DNA of 64,000 bases from Escherichia coli (lineage in GTDB: Bacteria; Pseudomonadota; Gammaproteobacteria; Enterobacterales; Enterobacteriaceae). The notes below the pieces were generated by a model. The model did no database searches. It saw only the letters and a program-made list of their open reading frames with translations, and was not told the origin of the DNA. The translations under genes were made by a program, and so were the position numbers. The DNA lies in NCBI RefSeq assembly GCF_029227855.1, contig NZ_CP074356.1; one strand, given 5' to 3'. This document shows positions 8,155 through 52,123 of this stretch, piece by piece (the stretch's first letter is position 1; each line of letters begins with the position of its first letter).

Positions 8155-8865
8155 TGTGCACAGAAAACCCCCAGCTAGGCTGGGGGTTCCGGAAAGCTTT
8201 CAGCTTTAAGCCAGTTATTAAAACCCCTTTTGATTTGTTAAAACACCTTGCGGTCTGGCAACTGCAAGTGTCAAACAAGAAATCAAAAGGGGGTCCCAAT
8301 GGGGAACGAAAAGAGCTTAGCGCACACCCGATGGAACTGTAAATATCACATAGTTTTTGCGCCAAAATACCGAAGACAGGTGTTCTACAGAGAGAAGCGT
8401 AGAGCAATAGGCAGTATTTTGAGAAAGCTGTGTGAGTGGAAAAGTGTACGGATTCTGGAAGCTGAATGCTGTGCAGATCATATCCATATGCTTGTGGAGA
8501 TCCCGCCCAAAATGAGCGTATCCGGCTTTATGGGATATCTGAAAGGGAAAAGCAGTCTGATGCTTTACGAGCAGTTTGGTGATTTGAAATTCAAATACAG
8601 GAACAGGGAGTTCTGGTGCAGAGGGTACTACGTCGATACGGTGGGTAAGAACACGGCGAAGATACAGGATTACATAAAGCACCAGCTTGAAGAGGATAAA
8701 ATGGGAGAGCAGTTATCGATTCCCTATCCGGGCAGCCCGTTTACGGGCCGTAAGTAACGAAGTTGGATGCAAATGTCAGATCGTGTGCGCCTGTTAGGGC
8801 GCGGCTGGTAAGAGAGCCTTATAGGCGCATTTGAAAAACCTCCGGCTATGCCGGAGGATATTTAT
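8155..8865 (+). mobile_element. IS200-family insertion sequence (IS200/IS605 family); boundaries approximate
   Basis: Intact 152-aa Y1 HUH transposase with the HxH motif; hairpin at the left end (8166..8188); imperfect stem-loop around the RBS (8226..8290); hairpin at the right end (8839..8857); overall size about 0.7 kb as expected for IS200. Confidence 0.8.
8299..8757 (+). CDS. tnpA: IS200/IS605-family transposase TnpA (Y1 HUH)
   Basis: Track ORF 8248..8757 trimmed to the ATG preceded by an AAAAGGGGG Shine-Dalgarno; product 152 aa, MGNEKSLAHTRWNCKYHIVFAPKYRR...HIHMLVEIPPK, typical IS200 TnpA. Confidence 0.9.
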   Translation: MGNEKSLAHTRWNCKYHIVFAPKYRRQVFYREKRRAIGSILRKLCEWKSVRILEAECCADHIHMLVEIPPKMSVSGFMGYLKGKSSLMLYEQFGDLKFKYRNREFWCRGYYVDTVGKNTAKIQDYIKHQLEEDKMGEQLSIPYPGSPFTGRK

Positions 8866-11761: not shown

Positions 11762-11766
11762 ATAAA

Positions 11767-11792
11767 AGGTCCGATGCCCATCGGACCTTTTT
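11767..11792. terminator. Bidirectional rho-independent terminator between convergent ecdD and ygbN
   Basis: aggtccgatg-ccc-atcggacct hairpin flanked by an A-run and a T-run. Confidence 0.75.
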
Positions 11793-17799: not shown

Positions 17800-17849
17800 T
17801 GGCCTGCAATAACACCGGGTTACTCATGCTTCACAGAAGAAGCATGAGA

Positions 17850-18506: not shown

Positions 18507-18611
18507 GGTTTTACCCTGTAAAATAAGATTTCCTATTATACAGGGTGTTTTTATTTGATTCGTCAGTTGTCGTTAATATTCCCGATAGCAAAAGACTATC
18601 GGGAATTGTTA

Positions 18612-21807: not shown

Positions 21808-21832
21808 TGCCGGAGAGCCATACTCTCCGGCA
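21808..21832. terminator. Bidirectional terminator hairpin between ygbA and the convergent TOBE gene
   Basis: 10-bp perfect stem tgccggagag/ctctccggca with a 5-nt loop; A/T-rich flanks on both sides. Confidence 0.6.
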
Positions 21833-47194: not shown

Positions 47195-48709
47195 ATGAGT
47201 TTTTCCGTTGATGTGCTGGCGAATATCGCCATCGAATTGCAGCGTGGGATTGGTCATCAGGATCGTTTTCAGCGCCTGATCACCACGCTGCGTCAGGTGC
47301 TGGAGTGCGATGCGTCTGCGTTGCTACGTTACGACTCGCGGCAGTTTATTCCGCTTGCCATCGACGGGCTGGCGAAGGATGTACTTGGTAGACGCTTTGC
47401 GCTGGAAGGTCATCCACGGCTGGAAGCGATTGCCCGCGCGGGTGATGTGGTGCGCTTTCCCGCAGACAGCGAATTGCCCGATCCCTATGACGGTTTGATT
47501 CCCGGGCAGGAGAGTCTGAAGGTTCACGCCTGCGTTGGTCTGCCATTGTTTGCCGGACAAAACCTGATCGGCGCATTGACGCTCGACGGGATGCAGCCCG
47601 ATCAGTTCGATGTTTTCAGTGACGAAGAGTTACGGCTGATTGCTGCCCTGGCGGCGGGAGCGTTAAGCAATGCGTTGCTGATTGAACAACTGGAAAGTCA
47701 GAATATGCTGCCAGGCGATGCCGCGCCGTTTGAAGCGGTGAAACAGACGCAGATGATTGGCTTGTCGCCAGGCATGACGCAATTGAAAAAAGAGATTGAG
47801 ATTGTGGCGGCGTCCGATCTCAACGTCCTGATCAGCGGTGAGACGGGAACCGGTAAGGAGCTGGTGGCGAAAGCGATTCATGAAGCCTCGCCACGGGCGG
47901 TGAATCCGCTGGTCTATCTCAACTGTGCCGCACTGCCGGAAAGTGTGGCGGAAAGTGAACTGTTCGGGCATGTGAAAGGGGCGTTTACTGGCGCTATCAG
48001 TAACCGCAGCGGGAAGTTTGAAATGGCGGATAACGGCACACTGTTTCTCGATGAGATCGGCGAGTTGTCGTTGGCATTGCAGGCCAAGTTGCTGCGAGTG
48101 TTGCAGTATGGCGATATTCAGCGTGTTGGCGATGACCGCAGTTTGCGGGTCGATGTGCGCGTGCTGGCGGCGACTAACCGCGACTTACGCGAAGAGGTAC
48201 TGGCAGGGCGATTCCGCGCCGATTTGTTTCATCGCCTGAGCGTGTTCCCACTTTCGGTGCCGCCGCTGCGTGAGCGGGGCGATGATGTCATTCTGCTGGC
48301 GGGGTATTTCTGCGAGCAGTGTCGTTTGCGGCTGGGGCTCTCCCGCGTGGTATTAAGCGCCGGAGCGCGAAATTTACTGCAACACTACAGTTTTCCGGGA
48401 AACGTGCGCGAACTGGAACATGCTATTCATCGGGCGGTAGTACTGTCGAGAGCCACCCGCAGCGGCGATGAAGTGATTCTTGAGGCGCAACATTTTGCTT
48501 TTCCTGAGGTGACGTTGCCGCCGCCAGAAGCAGCGGCGGTGCCCGTTGTTAAGCAAAATCTGCGTGAAGCGACAGAAGCGTTCCAGCGTGAAACCATTCG
48601 CCAGGCACTGGCACAAAATCATCACAACTGGGCTGCCTGCGCGCGAATGCTGGAAACTGACGTCGCCAACCTGCATCGGCTGGCGAAACGTCTGGGATTG
48701 AAGGATTAA
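47195..48709 (+). CDS. norR: Anaerobic nitric oxide reductase transcriptional regulator NorR (sigma-54 enhancer-binding protein)
   Basis: Track ORF 47120..48709; start set to the ATG encoding [18 protein letters not shown] (504 aa), downstream of the NorR sites; GAF, AAA+ ([14 protein letters not shown]) and HTH domains. Confidence 0.93.
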
Positions 48710-49671: not shown

Positions 49672-50437
49672 TGCTCTCTCCGGTTATGATCACATCGATC
49701 CCTTTCTTTTCCAGCGCCTGACGAAACGCCGGATCGATACCTGCGTCGGTAATTAGCTTATCGACGCTTTCAAGACTGCAAACTACGTTGGGGCTTTTAC
49801 GGCCAAACTTTGATGAGTCTGCCATCAAAATCACTTCGCGCGCGGCATTGCACATTGCCTTACTGACGGTATAAACCTCGTTGAACGTGGTTACGCCCGC
49901 ATTGAGATCGATGCCGTCGGTGCCCATAAACAATTTATCGAAGGTGAAATGCTCGAAGGCATTCTCTGCCAGTTGCCCGTGAAATGAGGCCGATTTTTTA
50001 CGAAATGTTCCGCCTGGCATCAGGATAGTTTGTTCGTTATCCAGTTCGGATAGCGCATTGACGATATGCAGGCTGTTGGTCATCACTGTGATGTTATTAA
50101 AGCGCGAGAGCAGGGGAACCATCTGCAAAACGGTACTGCCAGCATCAAGAATGATCGAATCGCCATCATGGATAAAACTAACGGCAGCTTCTGCAATCAG
50201 CTCTTTCTTGTGGGTGTTGATGAGTGTTTTATGATCGATAGGCGGATCGGATTCCTCTTTATTCAACACCACTCCGCCATAAGTACGAATGACGGTTCCG
50301 GCATGTTCCAGAATGACCAGATCTTTGCGGATGGTTGTGCCTGTGGTGTCAAAGTATTGCGCCAATTCTTCAACCGAGCATTTACCCTGCTTTTGCAGAT
50401 ACTCCAGAATGGCGGCCTGACGCTGACGAGGTTTCAT
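49664..50437 (-). CDS. srlR: Glucitol operon repressor (DeoR family)
   Basis: Track ORF 257 aa; N-terminal DeoR-type HTH. Confidence 0.93.
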
Positions 50438-50503
50438 GGGCGTGATTACCTGATTTAGGTTTCAAAATGATAACTTCGCAAGCAAGTAACATTCACAACG
50501 AAA

Positions 50504-50863
50504 TTATCCACGTTTCAGTTTAAGCGCCAATGATAGAGCATTCTGTGATAGTGGATCATGGGGAAAGATCACATCGGGCTGTAAATCACCCGCATACATA
50601 CCGGTAATTGCGGGAATTTTTTGCGGTCGGGCGAAGACGGTCAGTCCTTTCATAAACAAGGTGCCGACGATGCGTTGCTGATCGTCCAGGGCGATGGCGA
50701 CCACGACCCGCGGTTTAAAGCGCCCGCTGGAACGGCCCACGCCAACCCGCCCTTGCTGGCATAGTGTGTAGAAGGCACGGTTAAAACGAGAAATTTGCCA
50801 ACCGCCTAAGGCCAGTTGCGCACACCAGGCGATAACGGCGACGGTGATGAGTGCGGATACCAT
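50504..50863 (-). CDS. srlM: Glucitol operon activator GutM
   Basis: Track ORF 119 aa; conserved position between srlD and srlR. Confidence 0.9.
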   Translation of the reverse strand: MVSALITVAVIAWCAQLALGGWQISRFNRAFYTLCQQGRVGVGRSSGRFKPRVVVAIALDDQQRIVGTLFMKGLTVFARPQKIPAITGMYAGDLQPDVIFPHDPLSQNALSLALKLKRG

Positions 50864-50898
50864 AACTTTTCCTTAATGTAGTGGCGGAAGTCCTGTAT

Positions 50899-50962
50899 GC
50901 CTGATGAGCGTAGCGCATCAGGCATTTTATTAGTCTCGCGGAGATCCTTAACGGATCTCCGC
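50899..50962. repeat. Two perfect hairpins (REP-like) in the srlD/gutM spacer
   Basis: gcctgatg-N9-catcaggc (50899..50923) and gcggagatcc-ttaac-ggatctccgc (50938..50962). Confidence 0.6.
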
Positions 50963-50968
50963 TGTTGA

Positions 50969-52123
<1,155 letters not shown>

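Follow-up and report, generated by a model that had tools for sequence, protein, structure and literature searches.

The window analysed here, a 64-kb stretch of DNA, belongs to the E. coli chromosome, and the 1 kb around the feature under study finds a match of 95-100% identity in 5,410 of the 5,426 complete E. coli genomes. The genes annotated beneath this match in those genomes are srlD, gutM and srlR. Gene order is identical to that of K-12 (srlA-srlE-srlB-srlD-gutM-srlR-gutQ), with the operon on the minus strand of the window. The srlD gene, which encodes sorbitol-6-phosphate dehydrogenase, occupies 50969-51748 (minus strand, TGA stop at 50969-50971), as supported by the ORF list, by the RefSeq annotation of E. 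coli records that are identical or nearly so, and by tblastn. The transcriptional activator gene gutM (50504-50863, minus strand; ORF list and RefSeq annotation) heads the distal regulatory group gutM-srlR-gutQ. At the far end of the operon, gutQ on the minus strand converges with the norR ORF on the plus strand; the two reading frames share 4 nt at their ends (48706-48709), and there is no intergenic hairpin.

The srlD-gutM spacer (50864-50968, minus strand) is 105 nt long and holds two strong hairpins. In mRNA sense, the UGA stop codon of srlD is followed by UCAACA and by hairpin 2, GCGGAGAUCC-GUUAA-GGAUCUCCGC (50938-50962, minus strand), which starts 6 nt past the stop codon. Its arms (50938-50947 and 50953-50962) form a perfect 10-bp stem with a 5-nt loop and a predicted stability of -19.4 kcal/mol. 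There follows an A/U-rich single-stranded linker, GAGACUAAUAAA (50926-50937, minus strand), which varies among E. coli alleles and is 1 nt shorter in K-12, then hairpin 1, AUGCCUGAUG c GC uac GC u CAUCAGGCAU, and finally ACAGGACUUCCGCCACUACAUUAAGGAAAAGUU and the AUG of gutM. The arms of hairpin 1 (50897-50909 and 50913-50925) are 13 nt long, 92% complementary and separated by a 3-nt loop; they form 10 contiguous pairs (ATGCCTGATG/CATCAGGCAT), one mismatch and 2 further pairs. The ribosome-binding region of gutM (50861-50874, minus strand; AAGGA at 50870-50874, ATG at 50861-50863) lies downstream of both hairpins and is free, not sequestered, in the predicted fold. An earlier note on this DNA had placed two perfect hairpins of 8 and 10 bp back-to-back in this spacer. 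Both inverted repeats are there, and the 10-nt arms of the longer one are indeed 100% complementary. The 8-bp repeat, GCCTGATG/CATCAGGC (from 50899), also exists, but is only the core of the longer interrupted stem just described, and the hairpins do not strictly adjoin, since 12 nt separate them.

Both structures stand out from their background. The 131-nt region has a predicted folding energy of -50.3 kcal/mol, compared with -29.7 +/- 3.3 kcal/mol for shuffled sequences (z = -6.2), and each hairpin folded singly reaches a z of about -6.4 to -6.6. Perfect hairpins with a stem of at least 10 bp and a loop of 3-9 nt number eight in the 64-kb window, compared with a mean of 0.5 in first-order Markov simulations, and two of the eight fall in the srlD-gutM spacer. 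The other six lie at 735-759, 8166-8188, 11764-11791, 17823-17848, 18578-18606 and 21808-21832. The one at 11764-11791 (AAAAGGTCCGATG...CATCGGACCTTTT) carries A4 and T4 on its flanks and resembles a bidirectional intrinsic terminator.

Hairpin 1 is a single REP of the z1 type (50895-50925, minus strand), lying in iREP orientation on the mRNA as AUGCCUGAUGCGCUACGCUCAUCAGGCAU-AC. Scored against the z1 consensus, which we take to be GCCTGATGCGCTACGCTTATCAGGCCTAC, it agrees at 27 of 29 positions, while the alleles of the same locus in IAI39 and U13A agree with this assumed consensus at all 29. When a 43-nt query centred on hairpin 1 was searched against 5,426 E. coli genomes, 5,425 of them gave between 20 and at least 47 places each. 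The element is extragenic, 44 nt past the srlD stop and 33 nt ahead of the gutM ATG; it is an imperfect palindrome of 31 nt with one internal mismatch, and it contains TGCCTGAT, the TGCC/TGAT motif of z1 and z2 iREPs. According to Ton-Hoang et al. (2012), E. coli REPs are imperfect palindromes of 30-40 nt with a GTAG tag at the foot, belong to classes y, z1 and z2, carry the TGCC/TGAT site in z1 and z2 iREPs and are mobilised by TnpAREP; K-12 has 584 copies in total, of which 84 are single. The K-12 RefSeq record checked lists no repeat features.

One of these hallmarks is missing from hairpin 1. At the foot of the REP, GTAG (CTAC on the opposite strand) is replaced by GTAT/ATAC in the allele that the window shares with K-12, while GTAG/CTAC is intact in the orthologues from IAI39, U13A, TUM18530 and other Escherichia clades. 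The window and K-12 allele bears a second change, U to C, which turns a G.U pair into G-C and repairs one of the two stem mismatches. Together the two changes shift the stability of the REP from -13.2 to -18.2 kcal/mol, a gain of 5 kcal/mol. This derived allele (GTAT) occurs in about 50 of 83 gut-metagenome contigs. Hairpin 1 is thus a point-mutated copy of a true REP. It is probably no longer recognisable by TnpAREP, because the GTAG tag and the stem mismatch, both features that TnpAREP needs (Ton-Hoang et al. 2012), are gone.

Hairpin 2 is of a different nature. Its query finds exactly one place per genome, always at the srlD-gutM locus, in 5,408 genomes, and no second copy with up to three mismatches is present in the 64-kb window. 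GTAG/CTAC is absent from its foot. The hairpin is confined to Escherichia, including E. whittamii and further clades, and is absent from the other genera compared. The idea in the earlier note that both hairpins are REP-type therefore holds for hairpin 1, for which a REP motif search returns a multi-copy family match, but not for hairpin 2, which we rejected as a REP since it is single-copy, lacks GTAG and has an unrelated sequence. The two hairpins stand side by side as in a BIME, and true BIMEs or arrays occur at the same junction in Citrobacter, Klebsiella, Kosakonia and Phytobacter; the Escherichia pair is nevertheless not a BIME, because only one of its two members is a REP.

The stem of hairpin 2 varies in a restricted manner. 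Every one of the 100 stem cells is paired in a set of 10 distinct Escherichia sequences, and the variation consists of one-sided wobble in three pairs (G-C to G.U, U-A to U.G and C-G to U.G). We also fetched 83 metagenome contigs by a pattern that left all 25 bases of hairpin 2 free; they hold five alleles, each with 10 of 10 pairs, and each of the four letters occurs at the first loop position. No double compensatory change was found in either stem (for hairpin 2, in the 10 distinct Escherichia sequences), so the statistical support for hairpin 2 is limited to wobble-only variation. The case for constraint on this stem is good but not conclusive. In E. coli XD35 (NZ_CP089142.1), an element of the IS5 family, ISEc68, is inserted inside hairpin 2 (equivalent to 50938-50950), where it takes away the 3' arm and parts srlD from gutM.

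Several other kinds of element were sought in the spacer. As in an intrinsic terminator, a G+C-rich stem-loop lies just past a stop codon, but no U-tract follows either stem (the sense tails are GAGACUAA and ACAGGACU), and the published score of 1.51 does not reach the cut-off of 3 (Adams et al. 2021, PMC7815308), so this candidate was rejected. A consensus scan detected no terminator-like site at 50300-51300. On the plus strand, the antisense REP stem is followed at 50926-50934 by a terminator-like tail, TTTTATTAG, in the window allele, where K-12 has TTCTATAG; the scan likely missed it because 9 nt inside a 10-bp stem were counted as loop, which exceeds the length limit. No sigma-70 promoter consensus was found in the spacer, where no -35/-10 pair reaches 9/12. 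The sole sigma-70-like site of the 1-kb scan lies at the 3' end of gutM (50503-50530, minus strand; TTGGCG-16-GATAAT, 9/12), just upstream of the gutM-srlR spacer, and judged by its sequence it could be an internal srlR promoter. The Rfam scan of 50400-51400 (E <= 10) gave two sub-threshold matches in all, both due to bare hairpins. One is to the NiCo-AnGGAG riboswitch (RF03164; 50931-51007, minus strand), with 25.4 bits (E = 0.006) against a gathering threshold of 64.5; in this alignment the stem of hairpin 2 alone fits and the remaining stems are mispaired and lie inside the srlD CDS, and we judged the match to be due to chance. The other, to C0465, scores 15.6 against a threshold of 40 and was also rejected. 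A cluster of three GATC sites in 25 bp was set aside as well, as triples of this kind are found five times in the 64 kb and one of the sites is lost from an Escherichia allele.

Published transcript data for K-12 grown in LB, in which srl expression is basal, were placed on the window by coordinate transfer via the K-12 record. The major RNA 3' end of the spacer is at K-12 position 2828590 (window equivalent 50894, minus strand), 31 nt before the gutM ATG. It was mapped by Term-seq on the K-12 plus strand in LB at OD 0.4, with a mean of 4,666 reads, and placed in the 'orphan' class (Adams et al. 2021, eLife, PMC7815308); the printed context, ...CAUCAGGCAUACA, locates it 3 nt beyond the REP stem. 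The same Term-seq list has no end after hairpin 2. In DirectRNA-seq (PMC7815308), the 800-nt windows before and after 2828590 have coverages of 585 and 197 in untreated cells, a drop of about 3-fold, and of 309 and 199 under bicyclomycin, a partial effect of the drug. The position has a Rho score of 1.91 with a significant-Rho flag, in which the local share of Rho at the REP is not separable, since the 800-nt windows extend to a terminator inside srlR. That Rho region, at 2829346, has a score of 3.7, the strongest Rho signal, and lies 756 nt downstream of the REP end (PMC7815308). It corresponds to about 50138 in the window, some 300 nt into srlR, and a coverage of 697 ahead of it drops to 76 in the absence of bicyclomycin, one of 386 to 156 in its presence; therefore the repressor gene itself is prematurely terminated in LB.

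A second data set addresses the nucleases. In a SEnd-seq re-analysis that sets wild type against RNase mutants (PMC10667835), the sheet 'PNPase ends in WT' holds ends that are commoner in wild type than in delta-pnp, which the study terms trimming-stop positions. We assign two rows to this sheet by the part order and the column layout: at position 2828590 the proportion of ends is 0.76 in wild type against 0 in delta-pnp (FDR 1e-7), and at position 2828551 it is 0.05 against 0 (FDR 0.001). The latter position, the minor RNA 3' end of the spacer, has its window equivalent at 50934 (minus strand), 4 nt past the stem of hairpin 2, and recurs in the sheet 'RNase II ends in WT' (FDR 4e-4; 0 in delta-rnb; PMC10667835, supplementary file 3). 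A value of zero in single mutant libraries may also stem from low srl expression. The proportion of 0.76 agrees with the roughly 3-fold coverage step of the separate DirectRNA-seq data. In these published tables, then, each of the two hairpins has a 3' end a few nucleotides past a stable stem that is commoner in wild type than in the mutants, the pattern of an exonuclease barrier. The earlier note had proposed differential mRNA stability or partial termination between the structural and the regulatory genes, visible as a step in RNA-seq coverage. The K-12 data support this proposal, with ends at +3 and +4, a fall in coverage across the spacer in place of a uniform profile, a partial bicyclomycin effect and dependence on PNPase or RNase II.

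Our main reading, to which we give a probability of about 0.78, is that the two spacer stem-loops set the 3' terminus of the srlAEBD message and cut the amount of message that reaches gutM-srlR-gutQ. Transcripts that end farther downstream, partly by Rho termination in srlR, or that are cleaved there, would be trimmed 3'-to-5' by PNPase as far as the REP stem. The halt of PNPase at the REP would leave the dominant end 3 nt past the stem and a stable srlAEBD message. Hairpin 2 may act as a second barrier, at which molecules degraded through the REP would halt 4 nt past its stem in the presence of PNPase and RNase II. A minority of the message would continue into gutM-srlR-gutQ, and the net result would be about three to four times as much srlD as gutM message. 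Such an excess fits an operon in which structural genes precede their own activator and repressor. We infer that the hairpins cause the coverage step and that the step has been selected, with decay protection and Rho-linked attenuation presumably each having a share in it. No deletion experiment on the srlD-gutM hairpins was found in the literature. Protective stem-loops have been described as a general mechanism (Dar & Sorek 2018), a model that the srlD-gutM ends fit; mRNA half-lives are not uniformly lengthened by REPs (Harris et al., 2026 preprint). Elsewhere in the operon, the literature reports a gSELEX site of the RpoN holoenzyme between srlB and srlD (K-12 2825748), and RNase E processing sites in the 'srlD 5' UTR', upstream of srlD (K-12 2827646/2827713), that alter reporter translation. 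The srl operon therefore has more internal processing points.

The same junction was compared across the Enterobacteriaceae. Loci anchored on GutM in the genomes of 70 species supplied another 65 srlD-gutM spacers, covering 60 other Enterobacteriaceae species; with the window and six further E. coli records, 72 spacers were compared. The shortest of them measures 41 nt and the longest 612 nt. All but one, 71 of 72, contain a hairpin with 7 or more pairs, whose median start is 7 nt past the srlD stop and which begins within 15 nt in 59 of the 71. These junction hairpins come from unrelated elements, and their number goes from none to tandem BIME arrays. Salmonella diarizonae and some Citrobacter have a single REP; Citrobacter, Klebsiella and Enterobacter have BIME pairs; Kosakonia cowanii (612 nt) and Phytobacter ursingii (550 nt) have, at this operon junction, tandem arrays of five to seven BIME units that resemble E. 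coli arrays of the REP325 type. A boxC-like CCCUCUCCC...GGGAGAGGG is found in Enterobacter, and boxC-like CCCUCACCCUAACCCUCUCCC...GGGAGAGGG takes the place of a REP in spacers of Enterobacter, Lelliottia and Huaxiibacter. Trabulsiella and Pluralibacter have short private G+C hairpins. The neighbouring gutM-srlR spacer is 62-73 nt long in 64 of 68 loci, and its hairpins are weaker. One metagenome-assembled genome, 'Citrobacter sp. HRGM_Genome_0066', has two gutM loci, one with a spacer identical to that of E. coli IAI39 and the other Citrobacter-like, so E. coli contamination of the bin is probable.

These comparisons bear on the possibility that the hairpins have no selected role, the spacer being a permissive landing site for REPs and BIMEs and the RNA ends a by-product. 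REPs are mobilised elements, and the identity and number of the elements and the length of the spacer turn over freely among genera, as such a site would predict. Nevertheless, a hairpin is kept in 71 of 72 spacers, even in short ones with private non-REP hairpins; hairpin 2 varies solely in pair-preserving ways in about 95 sequences, its first loop base being free; and the REP allele of the K-12 type, though deprived of GTAG and of one stem mismatch, is more stable by 5 kcal/mol. We consider a role-free landing site unlikely, and lean mildly towards a hairpin being favoured at this junction. A more ambitious proposal, which we hold only tentatively and with more doubt than belief, is a conserved 'hairpin slot', in which convergent selection would keep a stem about 7 nt from the srlD stop as a decay barrier or attenuator that sets the structural:regulatory ratio. 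The Escherichia REP would then have been domesticated, by loss of GTAG and a stem stronger by 5 kcal/mol, with a private second barrier behind it. The stop-proximal placement has also suggested an effect on translation, in which a stem less than 16 nt past the stop stalls the terminating ribosome and lowers SrlD. Hairpin 2 begins 6 nt past the srlD stop, the first stem lies within 15 nt in 59 of 71 spacers, and a rule of this kind is reported for stop-proximal REPs (Liang et al. 2015, as summarised elsewhere). The rule was established for REPs, which hairpin 2 is not; in addition, lowering the last structural enzyme has no evident logic, and the mapped exonuclease stop already supplies a role for this hairpin. 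We regard a translational role as quite improbable.

A more serious contender is that the REP acts mainly during transcription, with partial Rho termination just downstream of it, so that the 3' end would mark termination and not protection from decay. The flagged Rho score of 1.91 at this very end speaks for it, as does the documentation of REP- or BIME-linked Rho attenuation for REP325 (Harris et al.) and in Espeli 2001, as cited by Dar & Sorek (2018). However, the stronger signal within srlR falls inside the 800-nt window from which that score was computed, and the 2828590 end is listed as PNPase-dependent, which is consistent with trimming to the stem. Rho termination as the main event thus strikes us as possible but rather doubtful; it is compatible with the exonuclease barrier, and the two are not exclusive. 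Last, the palindromes may matter as DNA, hairpin 2 being for instance an operator of SrlR or GutM, beside a weak constitutive promoter in the spacer for gutM-srlR-gutQ. A gSELEX peak of the RpoD holoenzyme is listed for the srlD>gutM spacer, a SEnd-seq table has two log-phase start sites in the srl operon (PMC10667835), and hairpin 2 is a perfect 10-5-10 palindrome. Yet the gSELEX study gives no -35/-10 sequence and our scan of the spacer found none that reaches 9/12. The half-site GGAGATCC (up to one mismatch) is absent from the 300 nt upstream of srlA and from the gutM-srlR spacer, no shared 9-mers turned up, and hairpin 2 is missing in all other genera that have the same regulators. We find a promoter or operator very improbable, and retain the exonuclease barrier as the explanation of the spacer.

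The feature as a whole is of an ordinary, already known kind, and hairpin 1 is an already known element. The role of REPs as intercistronic stabilisers or attenuators has been known since the 1980s. The closest counterparts of hairpin 1 are the intercistronic z1 REPs of malE-malF and hisJ-hisQ, described by Higgins 1982 and Newbury 1987 as cited in other papers. It shares with them the family sequence, the size, the extragenic and multi-copy nature, the position between cistrons of one operon, the abundant message upstream and a 3' end just past the stem. It differs from a typical z1 REP in that it stands alone, which places it in the minority single class (84 of 584), in its mutated tag and in the repair of one stem mismatch. 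The REP325 region of the yjdMN operon (Harris et al., 2026 preprint) has likewise tandem genes with an upstream-biased ratio, a partial Rho dependence and a protected upstream message; unlike the srlD-gutM pair of one REP and one non-REP hairpin, REP325 is a BIME array of 12 hairpins, and its dual action as terminator and stabiliser was shown by deletion. The stem-loops of Dar & Sorek (2018) have in common with ours a stable stem that no U-tract follows, a steady-state 3' end at a precise position directly behind it and trimming by PNPase and RNase II, but they are mostly found at the ends of transcription units, whereas those of srlD-gutM are internal to the operon and allow read-through to the regulators.

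The RNA ends at srlD-gutM are already contained in published supplementary tables, and the main-text passages checked do not comment on them. What the locus contributes beyond this is modest: a hairpin that is not a REP and is yet a mapped exonuclease stop, which would make the barrier two-tiered; a common K-12-type REP allele in which signals for mobility have been lost and a better RNA hairpin has been gained; and a junction that bears a hairpin of some sort in almost all related species. Together, these features would make the srl operon of E. coli a neat case of how the dosage of an activator and a repressor is set post-transcriptionally when both are encoded in the operon that they control.
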